A stretch of DNA of 64,000 bases from Dehalococcoidia bacterium. GTDB taxonomy: Bacteria; Chloroflexota; Dehalococcoidia; Lucifugimonadales; UBA3495. Within the stretch, counting starts at the first letter, position 1, and every line of letters begins with the position of its first letter. Below, one piece after another: positions 8,484 to 57,688 of this stretch. The DNA is taken from the NCBI GenBank assembly GCA_034423195.1, contig DAOUIZ010000034.1:2023-66022 (forward strand), given 5' to 3'. The notes under the pieces were generated by a model. That model saw only the letters and a list, made by a program, of their open reading frames with translations. It did not search any database and was not told the origin of the DNA. A program made the position numbers and the translations under genes.

Positions 8484-8567
8484 ATGCGTAACATGGTTTC
8501 GGGGTCAAATCGGAAGAGGCAGAATTAGGGCGTATGTGCCGGCTTGGATATGGCCTGAACTCCTGTC

Positions 8568-41785: not shown

Positions 41786-42050
41786 CGTCCTATTGGCCTA
41801 CCAACTTTGAAATAAGGGTACAGGGACTTGAGCTTGATGTGGGCGTCATGGGTGGTGAAACGCCAGTCTGTCGGCTTCTACATCGTACATCCATCATTTC
41901 GAGTGTGGTAGGCCGCTAGCTGCGCGACGTTTCTATCCAGGTGGACGCGCCATTGGACACAGGACTGTGGATTTACCAGGATGGGCGGGAGCGTGGTGGC
42001 TGGAGAAAGTGTTTGCGCCAGCGCCTTGGTGGAATTGCGTTGCCTGCATT

Positions 42051-42069
42051 TATGTGGTAAAAGTACATA
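42051..42069. promoter_or_regulatory. Palindromic TATGT-N9-ACATA element abutting the padR start (possible PadR operator)
   Basis: Read directly. The known PadR operators I recall are ATGT-N8-ACAT, so the spacing here is off by one. Confidence 0.3.
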
Positions 42070-42070
42070 T

Positions 42071-42514: not shown

Positions 42515-42533
42515 TAACGGAGGAAAAGGAACC

Positions 42534-43046: not shown

Positions 43047-43139
43047 CGGGGATCGTCATTCTCCGGTTCTCCAACCCACCGGGGTAGGGATTTCTGCGGC
43101 TATTTCCGGTTCCCGACAGAGGGGCGAGGAGGCGTTGCC

Positions 43140-44228
43140 TTGGTTGATTCAACAGAGTTTGCGGCTCAATTCCAAGAAGACCTGAAGAAGAACATGGAGC
43201 GGGTCCAGACCCTGTTCGACTCCTTCGTCACCAACCCGAGCGACCCTCCGGTGGGGGCCACTCCGTCGCAAGTCATCTGGAAGCGGGGCAAGACCAGGCT
43301 GCTCAGGTATGCGCCGGGGCGGCACAAGACCAATCCCCTGCCCTATTTCATCGTTCCCTGGCTGGGGATAAGCCGTCCCTACGTTTTGGACCTTTTGCCC
43401 GGGAACAGCATGATCGAGTACCTGGTGAACCAGGGACACGACGTTTACCTGCTGGACTGGGGAGAGATCGCCGAGGAAGACAAGGAACTGGGGTTCGAGG
43501 AAGCCGTCTTCAACATTATTCCGAGGGCTCTCGAGCAGATCCTGGAAACCTCGGGAGCGCGGGAGATTACATTGAACGGGCTGTGCCTGGGCGGAACGCT
43601 GGGTGCTTGCTACCTGGCCCTGAATCCGGATGCCCCGGTGCGGAATTTCGTGGCAGTGGTTGCTCCGATTGATTTTGACCAGGGCGGCATGTTCCGGGTG
43701 TGGCTGGACCAGCGGTACTTTCCCGCGGACCTGATCGTGGAGCGGTACGGCGGGCTGCCGGCCAGCCTGATGGGCACCGGCTTCAAGATGCTGCGGCCGA
43801 CGCTGGAAGCGCAAGCCATGGCTGGCCTTTGGGCCAATGCCCATCGTCCGGGGTATATTGAAAGCTACAAGGCGATGAACCGCTGGGCCAACGACTTTAT
43901 CGGGATGCCGGGGCAGTTCTTCAGGGAGCTGGCAAAGGACCTGTACGGCAGCAACCGGCTGGTGCGGGGAGAGTTCGTTCTGAACGGCCAGGCGGTTGAC
44001 CTGAAGCGCATCGTCCAGCCCCTGCTTGTGGCCGCCGCCAGCCAGGACTACATCGTTCCGTCGCCAGCGGCGGAGGGACTGATGAACGCCGTGGGCAGCG
44101 CGGATAAGGAGTTTGTGGAACTGCCGGGAGGGCATATCTCGGTGTTTTCCGGGCGGCAAGCCCACCAAACCCTGTGGCCCAAGATAAATGAGTGGGTGCT
44201 GGCCCATTCTGCGGCACCGGCCGACTGA
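43140..44228 (+). CDS. phaC: Class III poly(3-hydroxyalkanoate) synthase catalytic subunit PhaC
   Basis: About 360 aa alpha/beta hydrolase with lipase-like box GLCLGG (Cys nucleophile). Followed by a phaE-like gene. Confidence 0.85.
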   Translation: MVDSTEFAAQFQEDLKKNMERVQTLFDSFVTNPSDPPVGATPSQVIWKRGKTRLLRYAPGRHKTNPLPYFIVPWLGISRPYVLDLLPGNSMIEYLVNQGHDVYLLDWGEIAEEDKELGFEEAVFNIIPRALEQILETSGAREITLNGLCLGGTLGACYLALNPDAPVRNFVAVVAPIDFDQGGMFRVWLDQRYFPADLIVERYGGLPASLMGTGFKMLRPTLEAQAMAGLWANAHRPGYIESYKAMNRWANDFIGMPGQFFRELAKDLYGSNRLVRGEFVLNGQAVDLKRIVQPLLVAAASQDYIVPSPAAEGLMNAVGSADKEFVELPGGHISVFSGRQAHQTLWPKINEWVLAHSAAPAD

Positions 44229-44285
44229 CCTTCCTCCAGCTTATGCCCATTCCCAGTTGAGTTAGTCCACAAGGGAGACTTCCCC

Positions 44286-44990
44286 ATGACTACGCGCGAA
44301 ACCGGAACCAGCGACAACAGTTCGGCGGGTGGGGGCAACGCGTCCGCCGCCTTCGATGCCTGGCAGGAGATGTTCAGGAAATCGGCGGAAGCGTGGGCGC
44401 AGGCAGCCCCGGGGTTCCCCGGATTTGCTTCCCCCGGGCCAGGGGCAACGCCCTTCGGGGGGTGGCCTTTCGCGGTTCCCCCATTCGGGAGGGGCGGCAG
44501 CACGGTGCCGGGGATGGATGGGCCGTTCCAGGGATTCAACGTGGATGGGCTGACGCGGATGTGGCAGCAGCTTTACCAAGTGTGGGCGGAGCAGGCACGG
44601 CAGATGATGGCCGACCCCACTTTCCCACAGAGCTTGTCGGAAGCTGAAAGGCAGTGGGCACAGGGGTTGGAATCGCTGGCGTCTACTTTTGCCAAGTCGA
44701 TGAGCACGGAAGAATTTTCGCAGGCGCTGGGCAAATACATGGAGCAGGCGCTGGTCTGGCAGGGAAAGCTGACCAGGGAAAGCAATCCGCAGATGGACGC
44801 CGCCCTGCGGGCATGGAACGTGCCATCGCGGGCACAGATTGACCGGTTGTTTGAACGGGTTATTGGTCTGGAGGGACAGATCGAGTCCCTGTCAGATGAG
44901 GTCCGAAAGCTCCAGGCCACTGTTGATGCCGCCACCACGGCGCGGCGGGCAACGTCCGCACCGGCCAGTCCAGCGGAACCGGGAGCCTGA
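44286..44990 (+). CDS. phaE: Class III PHA synthase subunit PhaE-like protein
   Basis: C-terminal NVPSRAQIDRLFERVIGLEGQIESLSDEVRKLQ resembles the conserved PhaE box. Immediately downstream of phaC. Confidence 0.6.
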   Translation: MTTRETGTSDNSSAGGGNASAAFDAWQEMFRKSAEAWAQAAPGFPGFASPGPGATPFGGWPFAVPPFGRGGSTVPGMDGPFQGFNVDGLTRMWQQLYQVWAEQARQMMADPTFPQSLSEAERQWAQGLESLASTFAKSMSTEEFSQALGKYMEQALVWQGKLTRESNPQMDAALRAWNVPSRAQIDRLFERVIGLEGQIESLSDEVRKLQATVDAATTARRATSAPASPAEPGA

Positions 44991-45151: not shown

Positions 45152-45240
45152 TTCACCAAACTTTCACCAAGGACTAGGCATCGCGATGCTTCAGGCAGAT
45201 ATATGATACTGCCTATGATTGGCACTTCACCTATTTTCAC
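45152..45240 (+). promoter_or_regulatory. Two pairs of phased TTCAC direct repeats flanking a 6-bp-stem palindrome upstream of amt
   Basis: TTCACCAA at 45152 and 45163 (11-nt period). TTCAC at 45226 and 45236 (10-nt period). AGGCAG-N10-CTGCCT at 45193-45214. amt ATG at 45320. Confidence 0.4.
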
Positions 45241-45319: not shown

Positions 45320-46546
45320 ATGGACTCAGGCGATACAGCATGGATGCTGTCATCGACAGCGTTTGTCCTCTTTATGACTCTGCCGGGGCTGGCCCTGGTA
45401 TACGGGGGGCTGGTAGCCTCCAAGTCGGTCCTTTCCGTAGTCATCCAGTGTTTCGCGATCTCCGCCTTGGCCAGTGTGATCTGGCTGTCGGTGGGGTACA
45501 GCATGGCCTTCGGAGAGAGCCTGTTCTGGTTCATAGGCACCCTGGAAAACGCCTTCTTTCTAGGGATAGCGCCGGAGACAGTCCACCCAGAAACCCCCAA
45601 CCTGCCCGAGATGGTGTTCGTCATCTTCCAGATGACCTTCGCGATGATTGCTCCGGCGATAATTTCGGGCGCCTACGCGGAGCGGATGAAGTTTCCGGTG
45701 GCGCTGGTGTTCAGCGGGTTGTGGTCGCTGCTAGTGTATATTCCCATCTGCCACTGGGTGTGGGGCGGGGGCTGGCTGGACCAGATGGGGGCGATGGACT
45801 TTGCCGGAGGCCTGGTGCTGCACGCCAACGTGGGAGCGGCGGCGCTGGTGGCGTCGATAATCGTGGGCCGTCGCCTGGGGTTTCCCAACGAGATTGCGCC
45901 GCCCCACAACCCCGGGATGACGGCAGCGGGGACAGGGATGCTGTGGGTGGGGTGGTTCGGGTTCAATGGCGGAAGCCAGTTTGCCGCCGACGGCGAGGCC
46001 GGGATGGCGATTGCCGTGACCCACATTTCCGCGTCGGCCTCTGCCCTTACCTGGATGGTGCTGGAATGGGTAACGAGGCGGTACGCATCGCTGATCGGCA
46101 CGGTGACCGGCGTAATCGCCGGGCTGGCGGCGGTTACGCCGGCGTCGGGGTACATTGGGCCGATTGGTGGACTTATCTTGGGGTCGGCGGCCAGCCTGGT
46201 CTGTTTCTTCGCCGTTGGTATAATAAAGCGCAAGCTGAACATTGACGACGCACTGGATGTTTTCGCGGTGCATGGGCTGGGAGGTATCATAGGCGTGTTG
46301 CTGGTGACTTTCCTGGCATTGCCGATCTTCGGGGGCCAGGGTTATCCGGTGGAGGGGCGGGATGTCCACGTTCAGCTGGGGGTGCAGGCCCTGGGAGTCG
46401 CAGCCTCCATGGCATGGGCTGGGCTGTTCACCTTCATCATACTGAAGGTGCTGGACCGGGTCATGGGCGGGGCCCGGGTGGATGAGGAGGACGAGCTGGT
46501 GGGACTGGACCTGGCGGCTCATGGAGAACGGGGATACGACATTTAG
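45320..46546 (+). CDS. amt: Ammonium transporter (Amt family), copy 1
   Basis: MDSGDTAWMLSSTAFVLFMTLPGLALVYGG. Twin-His pore motifs DFAGGLVLHANVG and VFAVHGLGGIIG. GGAGG RBS. Confidence 0.9.
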   Translation: MDSGDTAWMLSSTAFVLFMTLPGLALVYGGLVASKSVLSVVIQCFAISALASVIWLSVGYSMAFGESLFWFIGTLENAFFLGIAPETVHPETPNLPEMVFVIFQMTFAMIAPAIISGAYAERMKFPVALVFSGLWSLLVYIPICHWVWGGGWLDQMGAMDFAGGLVLHANVGAAALVASIIVGRRLGFPNEIAPPHNPGMTAAGTGMLWVGWFGFNGGSQFAADGEAGMAIAVTHISASASALTWMVLEWVTRRYASLIGTVTGVIAGLAAVTPASGYIGPIGGLILGSAASLVCFFAVGIIKRKLNIDDALDVFAVHGLGGIIGVLLVTFLALPIFGGQGYPVEGRDVHVQLGVQALGVAASMAWAGLFTFIILKVLDRVMGGARVDEEDELVGLDLAAHGERGYDI

Positions 46547-46564
46547 GGTAAAATTGGGCGTGGG

Positions 46565-46951
46565 ATGAATGGTCCGATTCGCGCGGTGAACACCAAACAG
46601 GAGGTCGAGCTATTGAACGTAGAGAAGTGGTGGGAACGGGGAAGTTTGGTTGTAGCCACCGAAGGGCGGGTGAACGGGCTGAATGCGGCCGAGTACCGGC
46701 GCATGCTGGACGATGCTCTGGAGGAGGACAGTTCGGCGGTAGTCCTGAACTTTGAGAGGCTTTCGTACATCAGCAGCGCGGGGCTGCGGGTGGTGCTGCA
46801 AGTGGCAAAAAGTCTGCGCCGACGCGGAGCGAAATTTGCCGCGTGCAACCTGGACGGTCCGGTGTTGGAAGTGTTCGTCACCGTTGGGTTTGACCGGATA
46901 ATCCCCCTGCACGGTTCGGTGGATTCCGCGGTGGCATCATTCTCGGAGTAG
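46565..46951 (+). CDS. STAS-domain protein (anti-sigma-factor antagonist, SpoIIAA/RsbV-like), copy 1
   Basis: LSYISSAGLRVVL phosphorylatable-serine loop. 18 nt downstream of amt. Confidence 0.8.
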   Translation: MNGPIRAVNTKQEVELLNVEKWWERGSLVVATEGRVNGLNAAEYRRMLDDALEEDSSAVVLNFERLSYISSAGLRVVLQVAKSLRRRGAKFAACNLDGPVLEVFVTVGFDRIIPLHGSVDSAVASFSE

Positions 46952-46969
46952 CCTGCTCGGAGTAACCTG
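46942..46969. repeat. Near-perfect tandem duplication, 14 nt x 2 (CTCGGAGTAGCCTG / CTCGGAGTAACCTG), spanning the STAS stop codon
   Basis: Read directly. Followed by a further TAACCTG at 46973. Confidence 0.9.
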
Positions 46970-47084
46970 GAATAACCTGCCAACGCCGGTGCTGAAACGG
47001 TTCTGGAATTAACCCGGCCGCCGCCGGTGAGCGCAGATTCAGCGACTTTCATTAATTGGATGTAACCTAAACAGGATGTAATCT

Positions 47085-48248
47085 ATGCCCGATGGATTCA
47101 AGATTCTGGTAGTAGACGACGAGCCGGACCTGGAACCGCTGGTGCTGCAGCGGATGAGGAGACATATCCGGTCGGGGAAATACTCCTTCGTATTTGCCCG
47201 CAACGGCCTGGAAGCCCTGGACCTGCTTCAAGCCGAGGATGATATCGACATGGTGGTGTCGGACATCAACATGCCGCAGATGGACGGGCTGACTCTCCTG
47301 GAGCAGATCCCCAAGGTGGACCCGAATATCCGGTCAATCATCATCTCGGCCTACGGCGATATGAAGAACATCCGGACCGCCATGAACCGGGGCGCCTTCG
47401 ACTTCGTCACCAAGCCGTTGGACTTCGAGGACCTGCAGATAACCATTGACCGCACCCTGATGCACCTGACGGAGTGGCGGGATGCACTGTCGTCCCGGGA
47501 CAAGCTGGTGGCGCTGCAGAACGAGCTGGACATCGCCCAGAAGATGCAGCAGTCCATTCTGCCGACCCAGTTTCCCAAGGGAGCGGACTACGAGGTCTAC
47601 GCCAACATGGACCCGGCCCGCAACGTGGGCGGGGACTTCTATGACGTGATCCGGCTGGACAACGACTGCTTGGGGCTGGCCATTGCCGATGTTTCGGACA
47701 AGGGCGTGCCGGCGGCGTTGTTCATGATGTCCAGCCGCACCCTCCTGAAGGGATCAGCCATCGGCACCCCGGACCCGGGAGACGTGCTGGATGAGGTGAA
47801 CACGCTGCTGTGCGAGGACAACGAAGCGGAGATGTTCGTAACCCTGTTCTATGGTGTGTACGACCCCGCAACCGGCAAGTTGACCTATTCCAACGGCGGC
47901 CACAACACTCCGGTGGTCCTGCACCCGGACGGGAGTTCGGAGCTTCTGCCTCTGACCGGCGGGATTGCGCTGGGGGTGATGCCGGGAATGCCCTACGGCA
48001 CGGAGGAGATCGCTCTCCAGCCGGGGGACGCCCTGATCCTGTATACCGACGGCATCAGCGAGGCCATGAACGAGGTTAGTGAAGAGTTTGGAATGGACCG
48101 GCTGGCCGAGGTGCTGTCCCGGACGAAGACCAGGAACGCCAAGGAACTGAACGAGGAGATTTTCGCGGGTGTCAGGGAGTTTGTTGGCGACACGCCGCAA
48201 TCGGACGACATCACCTGCCTGACGATTTGCCGGAACGGGGCTGCGTAA
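47085..48248 (+). CDS. Response-regulator receiver fused to PP2C/SpoIIE-type serine phosphatase (RsbU-like)
   Basis: REC: ILVVDDEPD..VVSDINMPQMDG..FDFVTKP. PP2C: GGDFYDV...IADVSDKGVPAALFM...LYTDGISEA...DDITCL. Confidence 0.9.
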   Translation: MPDGFKILVVDDEPDLEPLVLQRMRRHIRSGKYSFVFARNGLEALDLLQAEDDIDMVVSDINMPQMDGLTLLEQIPKVDPNIRSIIISAYGDMKNIRTAMNRGAFDFVTKPLDFEDLQITIDRTLMHLTEWRDALSSRDKLVALQNELDIAQKMQQSILPTQFPKGADYEVYANMDPARNVGGDFYDVIRLDNDCLGLAIADVSDKGVPAALFMMSSRTLLKGSAIGTPDPGDVLDEVNTLLCEDNEAEMFVTLFYGVYDPATGKLTYSNGGHNTPVVLHPDGSSELLPLTGGIALGVMPGMPYGTEEIALQPGDALILYTDGISEAMNEVSEEFGMDRLAEVLSRTKTRNAKELNEEIFAGVREFVGDTPQSDDITCLTICRNGAA

Positions 48249-48667
48249 TGAGCTCGACGCTTGCGCTGAAGGTTGAAACCAGACTGGAGGAACTGCAGCG
48301 AATTGCTGCTGCGGTCGATGAATTGGCGGAGCAGGAATCGTGGCCGCCGGGGATGGCCGCACGGGTGAACCTGGTCATCGAGGAATTCGGAATCAACGTC
48401 ATGAACTACGGGTACGATGAAGGAGTCCACACCTTCGACATCAACCTGAGTTCCGATGACGGGTTGTTGACAATAGAGATAATCGACGACGGGAAGCAGT
48501 TCAATCCCCTGGAGGATGCTCCCGAACCCGATACGGAGTCGTCGATCGAAGACCGGCCAATCGGAGGGCTGGGGCTCTTTCTCGTGCGGACGATGACGGA
48601 AGACCTGCAATACCGCTGGGAAGATTCGAAGAACCATTCCACCATGGTGATGCGGATAAGCGAATGA
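48248..48667 (+). CDS. RsbW/SpoIIAB-like serine protein kinase (HATPase_c_2, anti-sigma-type)
   Basis: N-box VIEEFGINVMNYG, G1 IIDDGKQFNP, G2 GGLGLFLVRTM. The ATG overlaps the upstream stop (TAATG). Confidence 0.75.
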   Translation: MSSTLALKVETRLEELQRIAAAVDELAEQESWPPGMAARVNLVIEEFGINVMNYGYDEGVHTFDINLSSDDGLLTIEIIDDGKQFNPLEDAPEPDTESSIEDRPIGGLGLFLVRTMTEDLQYRWEDSKNHSTMVMRISE

Positions 48668-50001
48668 TCCCTCTCCGTACCCAGTTGTTGACGGCAATGC
48701 CCATGTCGCTGGTCCTGGGTGGGGCATTTCTGATCCTGTCGACAATGTTCGGCGGCCTGGGACAATTCATCCACGAAGCAGAGTCTCCCGTCGACCTCGC
48801 CCATCCGGTGGAACTGGCACAGTTCTTGGGTCAAGAAATGACCCCAACGGAGGGAGAAGCATCGGAAACCCGGGTCGGGGATGGGTCAAGTTCAGGAGGC
48901 ACCCACGGAGTGGGAAGCGACCGGGTTGTCTTTGGGCAATCGGCGGCGTTGACGGGACCGGCGGCGGAGCTGGGAACCAACATGAAGCTGGGGATAGAGG
49001 CCGCATTCCACGAGGTTAACGAAACAGGAGGCGTTCACGGGCGTCGCCTGGAGTTGACATCCCGGGACGACGCCTATGAACCGGAGGCAGCGATAGCGAA
49101 CACCCGCTACCTGATACGAGAGGAGCGGGTGTTTGCTTTGATCGGAGCCGTGGGGACCCCCACTTCGCGCTCCGCCACGCCGGTGGCCCTGGAAGCCGAG
49201 ATCCCGTATATCGCTCCCTTCACCGGCGCGGCTTTTTTGCGGGAAACGAAGTGGAAGAATATCGTGAACCTGCGGGCGTCGTACAACCAGGAAACCGAGG
49301 AAATGGTCGCCCAGCTGCACGACGGTTTGGGCTTGAACCGGATCGCGGTCCTCTACCAGGATGACTCGTTTGGAAGGGCCGGTTTCCACGGGGCAACCCG
49401 GGCGATGAACAAGCGGGACATAGAGCCGGTTTCGGTCGGCTTGTATCCGCGCAATACCCTGGCGGTCAAGACCGCTCTGTTGGACCTGAGGAGGGGAGAT
49501 CCGGAAGCGGTGATCCTGGTGGGGGCGTACAGGCCGGTATCCGCGCTGATCCAATGGGCTCGCCGCACTGGGCTTGATCCGGTCTTCATCAACATTTCCT
49601 TCGTGGGGAGCAACGCCCTGGCTCAGGAGCTGGGTCCGGCCGGGAAGGGGATATTTGTCACGCAGGTCGTTCCGTTCCCCTGGGATACATCGGTCCCCGT
49701 GGTCCGGGAATACCACAGTGCCCTGGAAACCTACTTCCCGGGGACTGAACCGGGGTTCGTATCCCTGGAAGGCTACCTGGCCGGACGGATGGCGATCGCG
49801 GGACTGGAGGCGTGCGAGACGGAGTTAACCAGGGAATGCTTCCTCCAGGCCCTCAGGGATGCCGAAGACGTGGACCTGGGGGGCTTTGGTTTGAGCTTCG
49901 GATTTGGTGACAACCAGGGCTCGGACAAGGTGTATCTCACTGCCATAGGGAGCGACGGGCAGTATCATCCCATCGAGACGCTGCGGGACCCAGTGCCATG
50001 A
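48664..50001 (+). CDS. LivK/AmiC-type (type I periplasmic binding fold) substrate-binding protein with N-terminal membrane anchor
   Basis: VVFGQSAALTGPAAELGTNMKLGIEAAFHEVNETGGVHGRRLEL..DDAYEP pattern. ATGA overlap with the kinase gene. Confidence 0.8.
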   Translation: MIPLRTQLLTAMPMSLVLGGAFLILSTMFGGLGQFIHEAESPVDLAHPVELAQFLGQEMTPTEGEASETRVGDGSSSGGTHGVGSDRVVFGQSAALTGPAAELGTNMKLGIEAAFHEVNETGGVHGRRLELTSRDDAYEPEAAIANTRYLIREERVFALIGAVGTPTSRSATPVALEAEIPYIAPFTGAAFLRETKWKNIVNLRASYNQETEEMVAQLHDGLGLNRIAVLYQDDSFGRAGFHGATRAMNKRDIEPVSVGLYPRNTLAVKTALLDLRRGDPEAVILVGAYRPVSALIQWARRTGLDPVFINISFVGSNALAQELGPAGKGIFVTQVVPFPWDTSVPVVREYHSALETYFPGTEPGFVSLEGYLAGRMAIAGLEACETELTRECFLQALRDAEDVDLGGFGLSFGFGDNQGSDKVYLTAIGSDGQYHPIETLRDPVP

Positions 50002-52445
50002 ACAGTGAAAACGATTTTCCGGGCAGCAAGTTGCTCAACCGGCTTCGCGGGCGCCTGAACAACTGGCGCCTCCAGGGCCGGGAACGGTACCGCCAGTGGC
50101 TGGAACAGGATCAACAACAACCCGCCACCGTGGAGACGGCTGTGTATGAGGATTTGCCGGAGAGTCTGGGAAGTCCTGAGCAGGGAGTACGGGAACACGC
50201 CGCACGGCTGACCGCGGAGCAGAGATCCGCCCAGGCGGCCGTCCTGGACGACCGAAGTCTGCTGCAACGGGTCCTGCACGCCAGGTTCCGGCTTTCCACC
50301 CAATTCTACATGGGTATCGGAGTGGCGGCCCTGCTGACCCTGGCCGCCAGTCTCGTTGGTTGGTTTTCCTTCGACCGGATGGGCCAAGCCCAGGACAGGG
50401 TGAACGAAAAGCACATTCCCGAAATGGCCGCCGCGTTCGAAATTGCCGAATACAGCAGTGCGCTGGTGGCGGCGGGGCCGCGCATGGCCACCGCCGAAAC
50501 GCCGGAAGATGTGGAGGTGATATACGACGGGATAGTGGCGTCACAGGGGGAGATCCAAAGCCAGTTGAACCTCCTGGGCGTGACGGATGTCGAAGATGAA
50601 CGCTTCCAGACGATCCTTGAACGCTCGGGGAATCTGATCAGCAACATGCAGGTGATTCGTACCCACAAGTTCGAACTGTTCCGGCAAGCGGAGGCCAGGG
50701 AGTCGCTGTCGGCTGACCTGGCGGAGATACGGGGCCGCCTGGATAACACGCTGGTGCCGGCTATCGACGAGCAGCTTTTCTATACCATTACGGGTTACCG
50801 GGACCTGGAGGCTGCACCAAGTGATTTCACGGCGCATTTTTCTGAGGATGAGTTGAGCCGCTACCGCTACCTGACGGAACTCCAGGCCGACGCCAACATC
50901 GCCACCGAGTTGCTGGCCAATGCCTTTACGGTGTCCGACCCGTCCTTCCTGGAACCCCTCCGTGAGCGGTTTGAAACGACCATCAACCGCATTGAACGCA
51001 ACTTGGGAGCCCTGGAAGGGTCGCCGGTCCATGAGGAGCTGGCGCCGGTGTTTGCCGATTTGGGCCGGTTCAGCCTGGGTGCGAGCAGCGAATTCAACCT
51101 GCTGGAGAGAGAGCTGCGCCTGGAGGAAGACCTGCGGGACGTTCTGTCGGAAAATCAGAGCGAAGCCGTCGCGCTGATCCAGGAAGTGGATAGCCTAGTT
51201 GTTGACGCAATGGACAGCGCCCAATCCGCAACAGTCGAATCCAGCATCGTCATACTGGAAGGCCGGACCCTTTTGCTGGCTATTACGGGCATCAGCATTG
51301 GAGGCGCGTTTCTGGTGGCCTGGCTCCTGGTGGGCAGGGTGCTGCTGAGGCGAATCCAGATGCTGTCGGACTGGATGCGCCGGATGGCGGGGGGAGAGCT
51401 GGACTCTCGGGTCGAGATTGGAGGCAATGACGAGGTTACCGACATGGCGGCAGCCCTGGAGGTCTTCCGGCGTCACGCGCTGGAGGTGCAGCGGCTCAAC
51501 CTTGTGGAGAGCCTGGCGGAAGAACTGCAGGGGAAGAACGACGAGCTTGAGTCGGTGCTCCATGACCTGCGGCGTGCCCAGGACCAGGTGGTGATGCAGC
51601 AAAAACTGGCCGCGCTGGGCGAGCTCACCGCCGGGGTGGCGCACGAGATCCGCAATCCGCTGAACTTCGTGAAGAACTTCTCCGAGTCATCCCAGGAGCT
51701 GCTGGATGAGCTGAGGGACGCGCTCAAGGAGTCGGCTGACGAACTCGACGACGAACAGCAGTCACTGATCAATGATATTACTGATGACCTGGACTCGAAC
51801 TTCGAGCGCATCCTGTCTCACGGGGAGCGGGCGAACCGGATCGTCACCGATATGCTGATGATGAGCCGGGGGGAGGCGGAATTCCGCAGCACCGCCATCA
51901 ACACCCTGTTGGATGAGCACGCCAGGCTGGCCTTCCACAGCGCCCGGGCGACGGACCCGAATTTCCAGCTTGACCTGAGGGATGACTTTGACGCCGAGGC
52001 CGGGGATATCCAGGCGATACCCCAGGACCTGGGCCGGGTCTTCCTGAACATGGTGACCAACGCCTGTTACGCCACGAACAAGAAGCGACTGGAACTGGAG
52101 GAGGCCGGAGAGACTTACTACCCGGCTCTGACGCTCGGCACCAAGCGGCAGGGGGACCGGGTCCTGGTCAGCATTCGGGACAATGGGCCCGGAATACCGG
52201 AGGAAGTGGTGGAGAAGATGTTCCTCCCCTTCTTCACGACCAAGCCGACGGACGAGGGAACGGGACTGGGCCTGGCGATTTCCAGCGACATCATCCGGGA
52301 GCACGGCGGCTTCATACAGGTAAACACCGAGCTCGGGGAATACACGGAGATGCTCATCGACCTCCCCGTGGAACCGGCCGCGGCCAGGCTGGAAGCGGAT
52401 GGGGATGGGGCCACCGTGGCGGTTTCGGAACCGGTGTCCGACTAA
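49998..52445 (+). CDS. Membrane sensor histidine kinase: 2 TM helices, about 300-aa extracytoplasmic domain, HAMP, coiled coil, HisKA, HATPase
   Basis: TM helices near aa 105 and 435. HAMP around MRRMAGGELDSRVEIGGNDEVTDMAAALEVF. H-box AHEIRNPLNF, N-box NMVTNACYAT, G1 RDNGPGI, G2 GTGLGLAIS. ATGA overlap with the binding-protein gene. Confidence 0.9.
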   Translation: MNSENDFPGSKLLNRLRGRLNNWRLQGRERYRQWLEQDQQQPATVETAVYEDLPESLGSPEQGVREHAARLTAEQRSAQAAVLDDRSLLQRVLHARFRLSTQFYMGIGVAALLTLAASLVGWFSFDRMGQAQDRVNEKHIPEMAAAFEIAEYSSALVAAGPRMATAETPEDVEVIYDGIVASQGEIQSQLNLLGVTDVEDERFQTILERSGNLISNMQVIRTHKFELFRQAEARESLSADLAEIRGRLDNTLVPAIDEQLFYTITGYRDLEAAPSDFTAHFSEDELSRYRYLTELQADANIATELLANAFTVSDPSFLEPLRERFETTINRIERNLGALEGSPVHEELAPVFADLGRFSLGASSEFNLLERELRLEEDLRDVLSENQSEAVALIQEVDSLVVDAMDSAQSATVESSIVILEGRTLLLAITGISIGGAFLVAWLLVGRVLLRRIQMLSDWMRRMAGGELDSRVEIGGNDEVTDMAAALEVFRRHALEVQRLNLVESLAEELQGKNDELESVLHDLRRAQDQVVMQQKLAALGELTAGVAHEIRNPLNFVKNFSESSQELLDELRDALKESADELDDEQQSLINDITDDLDSNFERILSHGERANRIVTDMLMMSRGEAEFRSTAINTLLDEHARLAFHSARATDPNFQLDLRDDFDAEAGDIQAIPQDLGRVFLNMVTNACYATNKKRLELEEAGETYYPALTLGTKRQGDRVLVSIRDNGPGIPEEVVEKMFLPFFTTKPTDEGTGLGLAISSDIIREHGGFIQVNTELGEYTEMLIDLPVEPAAARLEADGDGATVAVSEPVSD

Positions 52446-52553
52446 CTTCCCTCTTGGACCAGGGGCCTGGACCGGGGCTTGGGGCGCAGGCGATGTTTTC
52501 GGGGCGCTCCCGCACCTGGCGGGCAACGCGCCGGCGGGGAAGCGGAAACGGCC

Positions 52554-53492
52554 CTAGACGGGATATTCGAAGTAGGCGCTGGTGATGTGGAAGTGGAGGT
52601 CGCGACAACCCCGGTTTATCTGTTCGAGCAGTTCGTCCCGGTCGTCCCGGTCGGGCCATTCGTAATGGACCAGGGAAGCCAGTCGCCCGGCCAGCCGCCG
52701 GATGGCCTCCCCCTGCCTCGGGATGGGGCCGGTGCCGATGCGGGCAATCTGCTCTGCAATACCGTCGAGGGACCGTCCTACGGAGGATGGCAGGCTCGGG
52801 TCGGTAACGAGGAGGTCCAGGGCGTTCCCCGGCAGGACCTCGCCCCCATAACGGCGGTTGTGGGCTTCAAAGGCGTGACATAAATGCAGTAGGGTGGCCC
52901 AGTCCGCCCCGTCATTCATGGGGTCCGCGGAAATCTGGTTGAGCAGCAGCGCCGCCCATATCTGGGAGCGCTCGATGTAGCGGCCCAGCTGCATGAAGTT
53001 CCACCCATCGTCCCGGTACATGGTGGATACCGCCACGCCTACAAAAGTGTGTATCTCCGCTGCGGTCTCCTGGAAGAAACTTTCCGGGGACGTCTGCCAG
53101 ATGTCGAGGATGCCTATCTGGCGCATACGCAGGTAGGCCAGGTTCAGGCGGGTCCACATCTCGCCGCTGATGCAGTGGCGCATCTGGCGGGCATTTTCCC
53201 GGCCCTGGGAGAAGCAGCTCCATATCGAGTCGGGATTGGACAGATCGAAGGTGAGGTCGTCGGTCAGGGTGTAGGAATCGGCCAGAATGTAGTTATCCTC
53301 GCCGAACTCGAGGCTCCCGTGGGGAGGTTCCCGGTCCATGCTGCCGTAGATCCGGCTCCAGCCGAAGTAGATATCGCGGGCGGGCCGGTCCACCAGGGCT
53401 TCGACCTGGAACCGCAGCAAGTGGCACAGCAACTCGGCCCGCTCGAGGTAGCGGCCCATCCAGTACAGACCCTGGGCGCTTCTGGAGAGCAT
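52554..53492 (-). CDS. Alpha-E domain protein (DUF403)
   Basis: MLSRSAQGLYWMGRYLERAE is the hallmark N-terminus. About 310 aa, helical. Confidence 0.85.
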   Translation of the reverse strand: MLSRSAQGLYWMGRYLERAELLCHLLRFQVEALVDRPARDIYFGWSRIYGSMDREPPHGSLEFGEDNYILADSYTLTDDLTFDLSNPDSIWSCFSQGRENARQMRHCISGEMWTRLNLAYLRMRQIGILDIWQTSPESFFQETAAEIHTFVGVAVSTMYRDDGWNFMQLGRYIERSQIWAALLLNQISADPMNDGADWATLLHLCHAFEAHNRRYGGEVLPGNALDLLVTDPSLPSSVGRSLDGIAEQIARIGTGPIPRQGEAIRRLAGRLASLVHYEWPDRDDRDELLEQINRGCRDLHFHITSAYFEYPV

Positions 53493-53497
53493 GGAGG

Positions 53498-54928
53498 TCA
53501 GCCTTCCTCGTACTGTTCCGGCATCAGGACGAATTCGGGGTAGGCCTCGATGCCGAGTTCACCGGCGTCCTGCCCGAGATGTTCAACAACCGTGGAGACC
53601 CGGGCTCCGAGGGTCAGGTCAAAGCCCTTCCACAGGGCAAAGGAAACGGTGAAGGTGAAGGCCCCCACGGCACCGATTCCGGCCAGCTGCGCCACGATGT
53701 CGCCGCCCGCGACGATGCAAACGGCGAGGGTTCCCCAGATTCCGGCGAAGAGATGGGCGGGAATGGCTCCGACGACGTCGTCGATCTTCAGCACTTCGAG
53801 GAGCTTGATGCCGCCGGTGCAGACAACGCCGCCGATGGCCCCGATGATGATCGCCCAGTAGTGTTCGGTGATGTCGGGCCCGGCGGTTATGGAGACCAGT
53901 CCGGCGATGGCTCCGTTGAGCACGGCGATGAGGTCAATGCGGCCGAAGACCATGCGGGACAGGACCAGCGCGGCGATCACCCCGGCCGCCGCCGCCAGGT
54001 TGGTGTTGACCAGGACATTGGCCATGGCCACCACGTCCACGGCGCTCCCCAGGGCAAGCTGGGAACCGCCGTTGAACCCGAACCAGCCGAACCAGAGGAT
54101 GAATACTCCCAGGGTGACGGCGACCACGTTGGACGGCGTGGTAGGATTGGCGCCCCCGTCCCGGCGGAACTTTCCGAGGCGGGGCCCGACAATGATGGCG
54201 CCGGCCAGCGCGGCCCACCCCCCGGTGCTGTGTACGATGGTGGAGCCGGCGAAGTCCTGGAATCCCATCTTGTCCAGCCACCCGCCTCCCCAGGTCCAGG
54301 CGCCCACGACAGGGTAGATGAAGGCGGTCAGGAGGAGGGTAAAGAGGAAGAAGGGCCACATTTTGACCCGCTCGGCGAGGGTGCCGGACACGATGGAGGC
54401 GGTGGTGGCGACGAACACCATCTGGAAGAACCAGTCCGACATGGTGGAGTATCCGGACTCCAGCACTGTGCCAAGTCCGCTGGCGTCCCCATCGAGAAGG
54501 GCGAGTTCTTCGGGAGAGGAGCCGTAGAAGAAACGGAAGGACCCGATAATGCCCTGCACATCGACGTACATCAGGTTGTAGCCGATGATGAAGTAGGCCA
54601 GACCGGCGATGGAGTAGAGGCCGATGTTCTTGAGGCAGATCATGGAGGCGTTCTTGGTGCGGACTGAACCGGACTCCAGCATGGTGAACCCGGCGCACAT
54701 CCACATGACCATTGCGCCCCAAAGAAGGAACGAGAATGTGTTGAAGACGAAGCGAAGCTCCTCGTCGCTGGATGCGAAGGCCACGCCGGAGTGGCCGAAG
54801 AAGACTCCGACGGGCACCACTGCGGCGGCGAGGAGGAGAAGCCTGGCCCGTCGGGGCGCCAGCGCCAACCGGGTGAAAACCCCAAACGCGCGATGACTGT
54901 TCACGTTTATGCCCGGGGAATGCAGCAT
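53498..54928 (-). CDS. amt: Ammonium transporter (Amt family), copy 2, with N-terminal signal-peptide-like extension
   Basis: AGFTMLESGSVRTKN, DFAGSTIVHSTGGWAAL, AIPAHLFAGIWG. 5-nt gaps to both flanking genes. Confidence 0.9.
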   Translation of the reverse strand: MLHSPGINVNSHRAFGVFTRLALAPRRARLLLLAAAVVPVGVFFGHSGVAFASSDEELRFVFNTFSFLLWGAMVMWMCAGFTMLESGSVRTKNASMICLKNIGLYSIAGLAYFIIGYNLMYVDVQGIIGSFRFFYGSSPEELALLDGDASGLGTVLESGYSTMSDWFFQMVFVATTASIVSGTLAERVKMWPFFLFTLLLTAFIYPVVGAWTWGGGWLDKMGFQDFAGSTIVHSTGGWAALAGAIIVGPRLGKFRRDGGANPTTPSNVVAVTLGVFILWFGWFGFNGGSQLALGSAVDVVAMANVLVNTNLAAAAGVIAALVLSRMVFGRIDLIAVLNGAIAGLVSITAGPDITEHYWAIIIGAIGGVVCTGGIKLLEVLKIDDVVGAIPAHLFAGIWGTLAVCIVAGGDIVAQLAGIGAVGAFTFTVSFALWKGFDLTLGARVSTVVEHLGQDAGELGIEAYPEFVLMPEQYEEG

Positions 54929-54933
54929 ATCGG

Positions 54934-56367
54934 TCAGTCCTCCAGCACCCAGAAATCCTTGCCGCCGCCCCCTTGGCTGGAGTTGACGACCAGGCTGCCC
55001 CGTCGGAGCGCCACCCGGCAGAAGGCCCCCGGGACGATGCGGGTGCGCTGTCCCTGGAGAACGAAGGGGCGCAGGTCGACGTGGCGGGGCTCAAAGCGGC
55101 CCTCGATGAGACAAGGGGCCCGGGAGAGGGCCAGAACGGGCTGGGAGATGAAGTCGGCCGGGTCGGAGCGGATCTCCCTCGCGTAGTCTTCGCGCTCCCC
55201 GGCGGTTGAATGGGGGCCGATAAGCATCCCGTAACCCCCGGAGCCTCCGACGCGCTTGACGACCAGGTCCTGGAGATTGTCCAGGGTGTACTCAAGGCCC
55301 TCGGGCCGGCGGCAGAGGTGGGTCTCCACGTTGGAGAGGAGGGGTTCCTCGTTCAGGTAGTAGCGCACCATGTCGGGGACGAAGGCATAGACGCTTTTAT
55401 CATCGGCCACCCCGGTCCCGGGGGCGTTGGCCAGGGTGACGTTGCCGAGCTGGCAACAGCGGAGGAGCCCGGGGACGCCCAGCAGGGAGTCGGGCCGGAA
55501 GACCGTGGGGTCCAGGAAATCGTCGTCCACCCGGCGGTATATCAGGTCGACGCGCTTGAGTCCGTCGGTGGTGCGCATGAAGACGAAATCATCCCGGACC
55601 TGGAGGTCCTGTCCCTCCACCAATTCCGCTCCAAGTTCGTGGGCCAGGAAGACGTGCTCGTAGAAGGCGGAGTTGTAAACGCCGGGAGTGAGCAATGCGA
55701 TGGAGGGGTTGGACATTTCCCGGGGGGCCAGTTCCAAGAGGGTGTCGCGGAGTTCCTGTCCATAGTGCTCGACCTCCCGAACTCTCATGCTCCTGTACAG
55801 GCGGCGGAGACTGGCCTTGGCCGCCTTGCGGTTGGCCAGCATGTAGGACACGCCAGAGGGAACCCGGAGATTGTCCTCCAGGACGTGGAACCCGTCGTTG
55901 GTGCGTACGAGGTCGGTGCCGCAGATGGCTACCCACGTGCCGCATGGGGCCGAGAACCCCCGCATTTCCTCACGGAATTGAGGGCAGCCGTAGATGATGT
56001 CCGCCGGAATCACACCGTCGGCGAGGATGCGGGCGTCGTTGTAAATGTCCTGGAGGAAGAGGTTGAGGGCCTTCAGGCGTTGGGTGAGGCCCAGTTCCAG
56101 TTGCTTCCAATCGGATGCTGCCAGGAGCCTGGGAAGGCAGTCTATGGGGATGATCCTCTCTTCGGCTTCTTCATCGCCGTAGACCGTGAAGGTGATGCCT
56201 TCGTTGGAGAACGAGCGGTTGACCCGCTCGTGGATGCTGGTTAGCTCGGGGCCGGAGAGTTCAGAGAGGGTATCGTAGAGCTGCTGGCAATGTTCCCTGG
56301 GCGCGCCGTCCGGAAGGAACATTTCATCGTAGATTGCGGGGTCCAGCCCGTAGCCAACAAAATCCAC
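54934..56367 (-). CDS. Circularly permuted type 2 ATP-grasp protein (DUF404/DUF407 family)
   Basis: 477 aa. NAPGTGVADDKSVYAFVPDMVRYYLNEEPLLSNVETHLC and C-terminal GGGGKDFWVL match my recollection of this family. Paired with an alpha-E gene in the same operon. Confidence 0.8.
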   Translation of the reverse strand: MDFVGYGLDPAIYDEMFLPDGAPREHCQQLYDTLSELSGPELTSIHERVNRSFSNEGITFTVYGDEEAEERIIPIDCLPRLLAASDWKQLELGLTQRLKALNLFLQDIYNDARILADGVIPADIIYGCPQFREEMRGFSAPCGTWVAICGTDLVRTNDGFHVLEDNLRVPSGVSYMLANRKAAKASLRRLYRSMRVREVEHYGQELRDTLLELAPREMSNPSIALLTPGVYNSAFYEHVFLAHELGAELVEGQDLQVRDDFVFMRTTDGLKRVDLIYRRVDDDFLDPTVFRPDSLLGVPGLLRCCQLGNVTLANAPGTGVADDKSVYAFVPDMVRYYLNEEPLLSNVETHLCRRPEGLEYTLDNLQDLVVKRVGGSGGYGMLIGPHSTAGEREDYAREIRSDPADFISQPVLALSRAPCLIEGRFEPRHVDLRPFVLQGQRTRIVPGAFCRVALRRGSLVVNSSQGGGGKDFWVLED

Positions 56368-56611
56368 GGCAACAGTCCGTCAGTTTTCTCCGGTGTGACT
56401 ACCGGGGCGGGGTAACATGCTCTTTTCAGGAGGGTTTCCGAGGCTTGGTCCTCGCCCGGGATTCAGGTGCTCGTTCACCCCGGTTTCCTTCACTTGCCAG
56501 CGAGTTGCCAAGGACAGCATGGAGCGGGGCCGGAATCCGGGTCTGGTATCCCTGGCAACAGCTCCCGGGCCGGCGGCGCGGGAGGGCCGCCGGTTGCGCG
56601 ACAGGTCTGGA

Positions 56612-56950
56612 TCAACCGGAGAAGCTGGCAATGGCATCGGGCTGGGAACCCCAGACCGGGATGATCTTGTCGAACCCGCTGATTTCAAACACCTCGCGGA
56701 TGGGGTCGGAAAGGGAACAAACGGCGAGTTCGGTACTTTGACGCTGAAGGGCCTTGGTGGTCATGAGAATGACCCGGAGCCCGGCGCTGCTGATGTAAGA
56801 AAGATCCGCCAGGTCCAGTACCACGCCCCTGTCGTCGGTGCTGATAGCCTCGCTGAGGTCTCCCTGGAACTCCTGAGCGTTGGAGCCGTCGAGACGCCCC
56901 TGGGGCTTGGCGATCAGTATCCCATTTTCCCGAACGATTCCTAGTTCCAT
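56612..56950 (-). CDS. STAS-domain protein (anti-sigma-factor antagonist-like), copy 2
   Basis: LSYISSAGLRVILM loop identical in core to copy 1. Start moved to ATG 56950, preceded by AAGGAG. Confidence 0.8.
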   Translation of the reverse strand: MELGIVRENGILIAKPQGRLDGSNAQEFQGDLSEAISTDDRGVVLDLADLSYISSAGLRVILMTTKALQRQSTELAVCSLSDPIREVFEISGFDKIIPVWGSQPDAIASFSG

Positions 56951-57032
56951 TACCAATCTCCTTAGGAGCGTCTTTAGCGCAAGTTGAAGGGAAGCGGGGA
57001 GCCCCGGCAAAGGTGAAGGCGGATAGCGGAAC

Positions 57033-57092
57033 GGGCCTCCCGATAACTCTACTATGGGGTTTGACTTGGTTTTAGTGGGGCCTCCCGATAAC
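57033..57092. repeat. Perfect 15-nt direct repeat GGGCCTCCCGATAAC x 2 (57033-57047, 57078-57092) upstream of STAS copy 2
   Basis: Read directly. 45-nt period, 83-142 nt upstream of the STAS2 start. Confidence 0.9.
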
Positions 57093-57688
57093 GTAACGGC
57101 CACACCTAGAGTTAGATTATACCCTACAATCCATGGTTGAGAGCAATATATAAGATAGACAGTTACAGCCAGGCATTCTCCCTACCGAATGCAGGGGACA
57201 TAGTCTTTCCGGTGGTCCACATCTCGTTGAAGCCTGAATGAGGGTTCCTGGGCTAGACGCGTCCATGTTGAGACTGATGAACGGGGAAAGGTGAGACTGG
57301 ACTGGGAAGACGCAGAGCCATGCTACACGGACGCAATCTACAAGTCAACGACTTGCCTGAGAGAAGCGCGTAATTCATATCCTAAGGTGGAGCTCGTTAT
57401 TTGGAGAGAATTACCGGGACTTCTTCGTGGGATGATCCTCTTGATCCGTAAATCTAGATCATCCTATAGAACTCGCATTCAGGCTACCCAAGGATTCGGG
57501 TGCAGGTCACCTCACCTGAGGCAGCGAACGCGAACGGGACTTGCAGGAACTACTCTGGGGCTTTCGATTTTCGGGGAATCGCCGCATAATTCCCGTGCAG
57601 GGGGCTCTACCCCTCACTGCATCCGGGCGCTGCGTTTGCATGAGTGAAAAGTATGCCCGTCAACTTTGGGGGAGTTTCGGACTTAGCC

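Follow-up and report, generated by a model that had tools for sequence, protein, structure and literature searches.

The described systems that come closest to the one reported here are the partner switches RsbU/RsbV/RsbW and SpoIIE/SpoIIAA/SpoIIAB of Bacillus subtilis, with which it shares a predicted phosphoserine in the same loop of a STAS protein, a small GHKL serine kinase in which the catalytic Glu, Asn, and Gly boxes are conserved, and a phosphatase of the PPM/SpoIIE type. The icfG cluster of Synechocystis reportedly combines one kinase and one PP2C with two STAS phosphoproteins. In the SigF system of Mycobacterium smegmatis, there are several antagonists per anti-sigma factor (PMC10950880). 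In the response-regulator-coupled switches HptB-HsbR-HsbA (Pseudomonas aeruginosa), SypE-SypA (Vibrio fischeri), BtrU/V/W (Bordetella), and RbaV/W/Y (Rhodobacter), a phosphorelay leads via PP2C and kinase to a stand-alone STAS output, and SypA, RbaV, and BtrV are precedents for STAS proteins as outputs (PMC8256260). Ammonium transport also has its small signaling protein, the PII protein GlnK, which is encoded right after the channel gene (amtB-glnK, nrgA-nrgB order) and whose covalent modification depends on a sensory pathway. Here we analyze a locus in a 64-kb stretch of DNA from a Dehalococcoidia bacterium (contig DAOUIZ010000034.1), referred to as the window, in which a partner-switching cassette adjoins two genes for ammonium transporters (Amt) and a unit encoding a circularly permuted ATP-grasp amidoligase and an Alpha-E protein. 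Coordinates are 1-based positions of the window unless they are given with the label of another locus, and the ten genes of the locus were established from the listing of open reading frames (ORFs) together with Pfam.

Recurrent linkage of a partner-switching cassette to Amt and ATP-grasp genes

We scanned one genome per species with an alignment of the receiver-PP2C protein of this locus. At least 490 relatives were obtained, and the best 80 of them (L012–L091) were annotated by tblastn, with 10 kb taken as the neighborhood. These 80 loci share 61–75% identity with the receiver-PP2C and come from at least nine phyla, with representatives in the Dehalococcoidia and other Chloroflexota, Acidimicrobiia, Rhodothermales, Latescibacterota, Gemmatimonadota, Acidobacteriota, Spirochaetia, Alphaproteobacteria, and Opitutales. 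Many of them are complete long-read chromosomes, and the nearest relatives of the cassette are found in metagenome-assembled genomes (MAGs) of Dehalococcoidia. The core consists of a STAS protein, the receiver-PP2C, an RsbW-like kinase, a LivK-type binding protein, and a TorS-like histidine kinase (HK). Neighborhoods of STAS homologs are single operons of this five-gene core, followed by varying add-ons, such as ATP-grasp/Amt2/Alpha-E in L003, ATP-grasp/Alpha-E/transglutaminase in L004, and Amt2 with a flavoprotein in L008. Receiver-PP2C, binding protein, and HK occur in 76 of the 80 loci, with the binding protein adjoining the HK in 76, while the kinase was found in 73 and a STAS protein in 70. 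Any Amt is present in 25 loci (Amt2 in 16, Amt1 in 10, both in L016 only), ATP-grasp/Alpha-E in 18, ATP-grasp together with Amt2 in 10, a transglutaminase in 10, and more than one STAS in two (L025 and L040).

An Amt gene lies immediately upstream of the STAS gene on the same strand in 12 of the 80 loci, with a PII gene in between in three. Amt2 takes this position in three loci and Amt1 in nine (L012, L016, L017, L019, L020, L024, L029, L070, and L076; 56–69% identity to Amt1 of the window). Altogether, Amt is joined to the core in at least seven different gene orders. In L051, L070, and L076, the phosphatase is the first gene of the kinase operon, and the STAS gene is found outside it, behind Amt in a separate convergent unit; STAS thus stays with Amt after leaving the kinase. 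Clustering of 3,432 flanking ORFs revealed no other family in more than 11 loci, and the families below this limit were generic ABC-transporter components, SDR, and a DUF502 membrane protein, which rules out a hidden conserved partner beside the core, such as a sigma factor or a GGDEF protein.

As a control, we used 72 loci (859 kb) with ATP-grasp homologs of at most 55% identity. These generic homologs are always accompanied by Alpha-E and often by a transglutaminase, and none of the 72 loci contained an Amt or a cassette gene. The ATP-grasp of the window belongs to a clade of 66–80% identity that comprises cassette-bearing genomes and sponge metagenomes and stands apart from the generic homologs. 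Six of eight loci with ATP-grasp homologs of 66–78% (L100–L107) have the sponge-metagenome accessions MKWU, LXNI, or LXNJ (PMC5099237, PMC5649159), and the group includes an ATP-grasp/Amt2 arrangement (L100) and a second convergent arrangement (L106). The link of the partner-switching set with Amt and ATP-grasp/Alpha-E is real and far above chance. The first-pass annotation of the stretch had taken the repeated Amt-STAS association within the locus as an argument against chance, and the 12 loci with this association, together with the 72 controls without Amt, bear this out.

No flanking genes shared between the window and the 80 loci were found, and as identity across phyla is high nevertheless, the cassette has apparently spread horizontally across phyla. 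It looks like a horizontally traded trait of sponge symbionts. No description of an association of Amt with STAS, or of ATP-grasp with a partner switch, was found in our literature searches, and what is new is the recurrent coupling of partner switching to Amt and ATP-grasp/Alpha-E, with apparent transfer between phyla among sponge-associated bacteria.

Several side aspects of the related loci may be recorded. Many of the source MAGs and metagenomes come from marine sponges (RHO and SB bins, Spongiisociaceae, MKWU/LXNI/LXNJ assemblies). In L003, a gene for a GPP34 (Golgi phosphoprotein 3-like) protein lies just upstream of the cassette (8531–9178); GPP34 has recently been reported as a marker of sponge symbiosis (PMC11706023). 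The STAS genes themselves vary in number and place: three stand in tandem before the phosphatase in L040 (8172–9904), two are divergently oriented in L025 (8803–9967), and in L005, L006, and L007 (8013–10354), an orphan STAS of the same family directly follows the gene of a Na+/H+ exchanger-CBS protein and lacks a kinase or phosphatase in its neighborhood, which makes it a further case of STAS beside a transporter. A convergent gene for the DUF502 membrane protein directly follows the HK gene in L026, L033, L035, L037, L042, L050, L059, L062, L069, and L078 (at about 14.7–16.9 kb), and in L085, the eleventh member of this cluster, it lies upstream of the core. The DUF502 loci include the closest relatives of STAS2, the second STAS protein of the window.

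The ten-gene locus and its two STAS proteins

The forward-strand operon begins with Amt1 (45320–46546), an AmtB-type ammonium channel of 408 residues (PF00909, 358 bits). The gene of the first STAS protein, STAS1 (46565–46951; 128 residues; PF01740/PF13466; predicted phosphoserine S71), follows 18 nt after the Amt1 stop. Next come, on the same strand, the receiver fused to a PP2C/SpoIIE-type serine phosphatase (47085–48248; 387 residues; PF00072, 88.6 bits; PF07228, 184.7 bits), the anti-sigma-like GHKL serine kinase of RsbW/SpoIIAB type (48248–48667; 139 residues; HATPase_c_2, PF13581, 83 bits), the membrane-anchored or periplasmic LivK-type ligand-binding protein (48664–50001; 445 residues; PF13458 (Peripla_BP_6), 191 bits), and the sensor HK (49998–52445; 815 residues; HAMP, HisKA, and HATPase_c in Pfam). 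As the neighbors among these four genes overlap by 1, 4, and 4 nt, respectively, they appear to form one translationally coupled unit.

A second operon on the reverse strand runs towards the first. It is headed by STAS2 (56612–56950; 112 residues; PF01740, 71.7 bits, and PF13466; predicted phosphoserine S55), and after a gap of 244 nt (56368–56611, 78–80% conserved among related lineages) it continues with the circularly permuted ATP-grasp amidoligase (54934–56367; 477 residues; PF14403, 512 bits; PF04174, 460 bits), with Amt2, an ammonium transporter of the "marine subtype" whose N-terminus carries a signal region (53498–54928; 476 residues; PF00909, 322 bits), and with the Alpha-E protein (52554–53492; 312 residues; PF04168, 218 bits, full length). 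The last three genes are separated by only 5 nt each, and STAS2 adjoins ATP-grasp, not Amt2. Between the HK stop, which ends at 52445, and the Alpha-E stop codon (52554–52556), a spacer of 108 nt remains (52446–52553), and the convergence of the two operons on this spacer was correctly placed in the first-pass annotation. Pfam also confirmed the two Amt and two stand-alone STAS genes that it had listed. Its single RsbW-like kinase and single PP2C were the only copies found when all ten proteins were used for tblastn over the whole window, where we likewise detected no further STAS, no PII, no transglutaminase (including no match to that of L004), and no sigma-like gene (queries SigF, RpoE, and RpoD region 2–4). 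Anbu is not among the locus genes.

One boundary had to be corrected, as STAS2 had been thought to reach to 57103. The corresponding ORF of 163 residues is ruled out by the AAGGAG-N7-ATG sequence, the gene calls of relatives, and a drop in conservation upstream of 56950: the ATG at 56950 is the start in the gene calls of all related contigs, a conserved AAGGAG lies 7 nt upstream of it, and DNA conservation is 76–78% in 56951–57103, compared with 94–97% within the STAS2 gene. At least six independent contigs, some of them long-read contigs of more than 1 Mb, show the same ten-gene layout, which is therefore not an assembly artifact.

STAS1 and STAS2 are 48% identical over 104 residues. Both contain the motifs LSYISSAGLRV and VFxxxGFDxIIPxxGSxxxAxASFS, as was already noted in the first-pass annotation, but the phospho-loop core is not private to this pair: in an alignment of 22 family members, Y-SSAGLR is invariant, and the L, S, and I of the loop are at least 90% conserved. 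The identity of the loop therefore marks the family, and its use as a sign of a special relationship between STAS1 and STAS2 is ruled out. As the two genes share no long identical DNA tract and only about 79% identity over 53 nt, there was no recent gene conversion. S55 of STAS2 and S71 of STAS1 align with S58 of SpoIIAA, and D21 of STAS2 aligns with SpoIIAA D23. SpoIIAA D23 contacts R20 of SpoIIAB during sigma-factor release. Of these two residues, R20 but not D23 is confirmed as a partner contact in PMC10345196. In the corresponding GR(I/V)DG motif, N37 of STAS1 is the sole Asn among 80 family members, with D in 79 of the 80, and it is fixed throughout the double-STAS lineages. Measured against the 85% family consensus, STAS1 differs at five positions and STAS2 at one.

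In the family tree, a neighbor-joining tree of 112 residues and low resolution, STAS1 clusters with the Amt1-linked cassettes L012, L015, L017, and L024, and the nearest relatives of STAS2 are those of L042, L050, and L041 (69–71%); the two proteins belong to different clades and are not sister paralogs. STAS1 is the divergent copy at the canonical position upstream of the phosphatase, and STAS2 is a family-typical copy at the head of the ATP-grasp/Amt2/Alpha-E operon. Values of dN/dS between 0.04 and 0.18 reveal purifying selection on all ten genes (0.06–0.09 for the receiver-PP2C, 0.04–0.07 for Alpha-E). STAS2 is the most constrained, with 0 nonsynonymous versus 10–19 synonymous changes and a protein that is 100% identical on at least 20 contigs at a DNA identity of 94–97%, whereas STAS1 is among the least constrained (0.12–0.16). 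Judged by dN/dS, both STAS genes are functional.

Amt1 and Amt2 share 30% identity and belong to different old subfamilies, the AmtB type and the marine subtype. Amt1 scores 407 bits with TIGR00836 and has E. coli AmtB as its best solved structure (E = 6e-91), and Amt2 reaches 512.1 bits with TIGR03644, just below the cut-off of 514; its closest structures are Sd-Amt1 (8QJ3, 1e-67) and Ks-Amt5 (6EU6, 3e-57), followed by AmtB at 5e-27. Both are single-domain proteins with no fused cytoplasmic transducer (HK or GGDEF). The N1/N2 signature of sensor Amts, QX6EX15NX2D[F/T]X54-60TX2[S/T] (PMC11152129), fails as a regular expression in Amt1 and Amt2. When Amt2 is aligned to Sd-Amt1, E, N, T, and S of the signature are kept, but Q is replaced by C and D by L, and Amt2 is thus ruled out as an N1/N2-type ammonium receptor. 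In three related loci, a PII gene (PF00543) lies between Amt1 and STAS in the order amt-PII-STAS (L016, 9015–9335; L070, 15422–15757; L076, 15315–15650), with a divergent copy in L016 (37.5 bits). In L008 (16248–19321) and L009 (7785–10846), Amt2 and an FMO-like flavoprotein stand behind the core in place of the ATP-grasp unit, a hint that an amine may be transported by Amt2 and oxidized afterwards.

The ATP-grasp protein matches PDB 3N6X with E = 3.7e-164, and the Amt2 gene is inserted between ATP-grasp and Alpha-E. The same order occurs in 10 of the 80 loci (L016, L018, L023, L027, L038, L039, L048, L054, L055, and L064) and also in L003. With regard to origin, STAS1, the kinase (60–68% identity), and Amt1 resemble one cassette lineage (L012, L015, L017, L024); within it, Amt1 lies upstream in L012, L017, and L024, and the ATP-grasp/Alpha-E genes of these three come without Amt2. 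For the ATP-grasp/Amt2/Alpha-E block, the closest counterparts are those of L018, L003, and L027 (77–80%), and the kinases of STAS2-like and ATP-grasp-like relatives are only 38–51% identical to the window kinase. Across loci, the identity of STAS2 tracks that of ATP-grasp (rho = 0.51, p = 0.02, n = 20), whereas the identity of STAS1 does not. A choice of the cognate STAS by correlation of STAS identity with kinase identity was rejected, as this comparison is weakly discriminating (rho = 0.52 for STAS1, 0.45 for STAS2). On the simplest reading of these identities, the locus would be a hybrid of a type-A core and an imported or rearranged output operon headed by STAS2. It is a derived, split, lineage-specific version of the widespread five-gene cassette. 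We also looked with blastx for deletion scars, both of a second core in the gap that separates STAS2 from ATP-grasp (244 nt) and of a transglutaminase after Alpha-E, and obtained nothing significant at either place.

The whole convergent ten-gene layout is kept in L094, L095, L097, L098, and L099 at about 90–93% nucleotide identity, and the outer flanks of the double-STAS loci differ, with RecN in some and integrase or transposase genes in others. The double-STAS layout is rare but stable across lineages. The expectation that the two operons stay linked in related genomes holds for every double-STAS lineage sampled, in which they are adjacent, but not for the wider family, in which 55 of the 80 loci have no Amt and 62 no ATP-grasp within the neighborhood. 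Integrase, transposase, IS21-type, and AlpA-like genes lie a few kb from the STAS2 end in L097 (2676–5358), L099 (1100–4025), and L096 (3864–6211), which is consistent with mobility of the ten-gene block.

Both operons are preceded by conserved non-coding sequence. The region upstream of STAS2 (56951–57348, reverse strand), a block of about 400 nt, contains TTGACT-17-TAGCAT (57348–57320) found by promoter scan, a perfect TATAAT at about 57121–57116 (inside 57124–57114), and the Shine-Dalgarno sequence AAGGAG at 56963–56958. Its blocks are invariant in five lineages with differing flanks beyond, and the block thus travels with the locus. Upstream of Amt1 (45152–45240, forward strand), TTCAC-N6-TTCAC at 45152–45167 is the sole one in the window (0.07 expected), and a second pair, TTCAC-N5-TTCAC, follows at 45226–45240; the direct repeats have a spacing of 10–11 nt, are accompanied by a weak -35/-10-like pair (TTCACC-17-TAAACT), and form blocks that are invariant in L092 and L093. 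We take these repeats to resemble sites of OmpR/PhoB/GlnR-type regulators, and they are a possible candidate binding site for an unlinked winged-helix regulator. A sigma-54 promoter upstream of either operon was rejected: its pattern is no more frequent than expected by chance, and none of the matches is well placed.

The folds of the spacer (z = 0.01) and of the STAS2 leader (z about 0) are no better than those of shuffled sequences, which speaks against a structured RNA, a riboswitch, or a bidirectional terminator at these places. The spacer contains one weak terminator-like hairpin (52477–52491) and gave no blastn match in the diverged relatives L094–L099. Rfam had no match in the locus and only tRNAs elsewhere in the window. 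Further outward, directly upstream of Amt1 (41981–44990), a PadR-like regulator and a PhaC-like alpha/beta hydrolase (PhaC_N and Abhydrolase_1) are flanked by two unannotated proteins (42396–43046 and 44286–44990), and this block is kept in L092 and L093.

A possible branched circuit and its competitors

E46, N50, D80, R103, and G106–G109 are invariant in the kinase family, and at least 90% of its members keep G55 and G82; in SpoIIAB, the counterparts of these residues are the catalytic base, the Mg ligand, and residues of the ATP lid, with E46, N50, G55, and the Gly box matching the listed catalytic residues (PMC10345196). A profile of 12 kinase family members matches RsbW (6M36, 8e-9) and SpoIIAB (1TH8, 6e-6). 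In the receiver-PP2C, PF07228 spans profile positions 2–191 of 192, which is a SpoIIE match from end to end. The LivK-like binding protein has a membrane anchor at its N-terminus, and 4KV7 is its top structural match (E = 1e-72), ahead of binding proteins of the Leu/Ile/Val, amide, and urea types. The HK consists of a TorS-like extracytoplasmic sensor, HAMP, HisKA, and HATPase_c. It aligns with TIGR02956 (TorS) over residues 107–796 (E = 8.6e-46; 156 bits, with an equivalog cut-off of 676) and reaches 22 bits with the TorS sensor domain PF21689 (cut-off 27), and Pfam gave no Response_reg or Hpt match in its 815 residues. In six loci (L049, L053, L062, L067, L069, and L072), a reduced cassette has only receiver-PP2C, binding protein, and HK, with no kinase or STAS within 10 kb, which supports the pairing of the HK with the receiver-PP2C.

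As the phosphoserine position is kept in both STAS proteins, the GHKL residues are kept in the kinase, and multi-STAS cassettes exist, it is plausible that one kinase/phosphatase pair serves two STAS proteins. The reading that we tentatively put first, with a rough probability of 0.42, is that one core sets the phosphorylation states of both STAS proteins, which would act directly on Amt1 and on the ATP-grasp/Amt2/Alpha-E unit or would relieve an unlinked, RsbW-held partner. According to this scheme, the binding protein would capture a nitrogen-containing ligand outside the cytoplasm and modulate the HK, as in TorT/TorS. The HK would phosphorylate the receiver of the PP2C protein, the only response regulator of the cassette, and thereby set the phosphatase activity. 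The RsbW-like kinase would phosphorylate STAS1 at S71 and STAS2 at S55, and the PP2C would remove the phosphate, so that one core would set the ratio of phosphorylated to unphosphorylated forms of both. The STAS proteins would be the output. In the active form, they would act post-translationally on the nitrogen-acquisition proteins co-expressed with them, namely Amt1 and the ATP-grasp, Amt2, and Alpha-E proteins, and they may in addition set free an unlinked partner held by the RsbW-like kinase. STAS2 would represent the canonical switch, and STAS1 a specialized, Asp-less copy that is, for example, directed at Amt1 or tunes the switch as a competing kinase substrate. Direct post-translational action is favored because the pairing of Amt with STAS is conserved and no sigma gene was found. 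A branched circuit with one core and two STAS proteins is a reasonable hypothesis.

Several points weigh against this scheme. In the 10-kb neighborhoods, 55 of the 80 cassettes lack an Amt, and 50 lack both Amt and ATP-grasp, and in these stand-alone cases the core must be able to signal to something unlinked. L016 has Amt1, Amt2, and ATP-grasp with a single STAS, and two outputs therefore do not require two antagonists; of the first-pass proposal of one core, two antagonists, and two outputs, the shared core remains plausible in view of the conserved serines, the intact kinase, and the multi-STAS relatives, and the need for a separate antagonist per output does not. The PII genes between Amt1 and STAS in L016, L070, and L076 weaken the idea that STAS is simply a replacement of GlnK. 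PPM phosphatases can be highly selective among their STAS substrates (PMC11418112), and as the kinases of the STAS2 lineage are so distant from the window kinase, recognition of STAS2 by this core is not guaranteed. Additional kinases or phosphatases may also be encoded elsewhere in the genome.

The main rival is a classical anti-sigma switch, which we consider somewhat unlikely. The kinase would then hold an unlinked sigma factor or transcription regulator, the STAS proteins would titrate the kinase, with two copies adding gain or buffering to one output, and the Amt and ATP-grasp genes would be co-regulated neighbors of a nitrogen regulon. The 50 stand-alone cassettes, which need an unlinked output, are readily accommodated by such a switch, and the kinase profile indeed matches the anti-sigma factors RsbW and SpoIIAB. 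Multiple antagonists per anti-sigma factor have their precedent in SigF of M. smegmatis (PMC10950880), and the conserved promoter-like elements upstream of both operons, together with the TTCAC site upstream of Amt1, represent inputs at the level of transcription. However, no sigma-like gene was found in the window or in 78 of the 80 loci, with matches to the above sigma queries in only two, and a pure titrator leaves unexplained why Amt and STAS remain paired in L051, L070, and L076, where they lie apart from the kinase operon. The Asp-to-Asn exchange of STAS1 at the SpoIIAA D23 position, with the role of D23 as given above, also fits poorly with a copy that serves displacement only.

A stricter version of the branched circuit was put forward in the first-pass annotation, in which two paralogous, co-duplicated Amt-STAS pairs share one kinase and phosphatase, with STAS1 for Amt1 and STAS2 for Amt2 and ATP-grasp. 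It could draw on the 12 loci with an Amt of either type directly upstream of STAS, on the correlation of STAS2 but not STAS1 identity with ATP-grasp identity, and on purifying selection on both STAS genes. We nevertheless regard it as distinctly unlikely. The Amts come from different old subfamilies at 30% identity and the STAS proteins are not sister paralogs, which rules out co-duplication, and STAS2 lies beside ATP-grasp and not beside Amt2. In addition, L016 combines both Amts with one STAS, and only 2 of the 80 loci have more than one STAS.

STAS2 could also be a passenger from a lost second cassette, which is served by an unlinked kinase or acts without phosphorylation, and the adjacency of the operons would then have no regulatory meaning. 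STAS2 and the ATP-grasp/Amt2/Alpha-E block indeed resemble another cassette lineage than STAS1, the kinase, and Amt1 do, and STAS2 has its own conserved promoter region. This explanation appears very improbable to us, as there is no remnant of a core gene in the 244-nt gap, the operons are adjacent in every lineage sampled despite differing outer flanks, purifying selection among the ten genes is strongest on STAS2, and in many phyla ATP-grasp blocks occur together with a complete core. Chance juxtaposition or an assembly chimera is already refuted by the independent contigs, the long-read contigs of more than 1 Mb among them, and by the recurrence of the association in many phyla against control loci without Amt.

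Comparison with described systems

If the wiring proposed for the branched circuit were true, partner switching would control nitrogen uptake post-translationally, with no sigma factor or PII encoded at the locus, an arrangement of which we found no published description. The locus is thus a lead to phosphorylation-based nitrogen control that is independent of a locus-encoded PII. The sharing across phyla and the sponge sources suggest a horizontally traded adaptation to a host-derived nitrogen signal, and the rare double-STAS lineage represents a natural experiment on the divergence of a duplicated or imported antagonist under one kinase. One may go further and regard the STAS proteins as phosphorylation-gated direct regulators of Amt channels and of the ATP-grasp/Alpha-E amidoligase, that is, as a serine-phosphorylation counterpart of PII/GlnK that would be driven by a binding-protein sensor, would be passed horizontally among unrelated sponge symbionts, and would here be split into a STAS2 switch and an Asp-less STAS1 tied to Amt1. 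As a whole, we hold this extended view to be unlikely.

To our knowledge, the circularly permuted ATP-grasp/Alpha-E/transglutaminase system has been without an assigned function since 2009. An Amt within the ATP-grasp operon and a ligand sensor upstream point to a role in nitrogen capture or storage in this clade. As in the operons for ATP-grasp, Alpha-E, transglutaminase, and in part Anbu (Iyer et al. 2009, as cited in PMC5666114), PF14403/PF04174 and PF04168 proteins are encoded together, and relatives add a transglutaminase, but here an Amt gene lies inside the operon, neither transglutaminase nor Anbu is present in the window, and the unit is coupled to a partner-switching cassette. In Pseudomonas putida, nitrogen limitation is reported to induce the Anbu/ATP-grasp/Alpha-E operon (cited in PMC5666114).

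Ks-Amt5 and Sd-Amt1, the nearest solved structures to Amt2, also belong to a signaling context (PMC5764959, PMC11152129), but in contrast to them, Amt2 has no fused transducer domain and does not show the N1/N2 signature. With GlnK-AmtB, the locus shares the small signaling protein encoded right after amt and a covalent modification that would depend on a sensory pathway. The small protein is, however, a STAS protein with predicted serine modification by a kinase and a PP2C, not a uridylylated or adenylylated PII trimer, and a PII gene adjacent to amt is missing, as it is in the remainder of the window. TorT/TorS, and likewise LuxP/LuxQ, resemble the sensory part of the cassette in having a periplasmic binding protein beside an HK, in this case with a sensor-HAMP-kinase region that aligns with TorS. 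The binding protein is nevertheless of the Peripla_BP_6/LivK type and not TorT, the HK has no receiver and HPt domains, and its TorS score is far below the equivalog cut-off.

With the response-regulator-coupled switches, the locus has in common the proposed order of phosphorelay, PP2C and kinase, and stand-alone STAS output. HsbR and SypE fuse PP2C and kinase, whereas receiver-PP2C and kinase are separate proteins here, the input consists of a LivK-type binding protein and a TorS-like HK, and the genomic partners are Amt and ATP-grasp/Alpha-E. The icfG cluster and the SigF system of M. smegmatis share with our proposal that more than one STAS substrate would belong to one kinase/phosphatase set in a branched network, but here the STAS genes are in different convergent operons and come from different family branches, and one of them lacks the otherwise invariant Asp. 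Relative to the B. subtilis switches, with their same phosphoserine loop, kinase boxes, and phosphatase type, the locus lacks a sigma gene inside the operon or in its vicinity. Its phosphatase would be driven by a receiver domain together with a binding-protein/HK sensor of its own, and the module is linked to transporters and an amidoligase in place of a sigma regulon.

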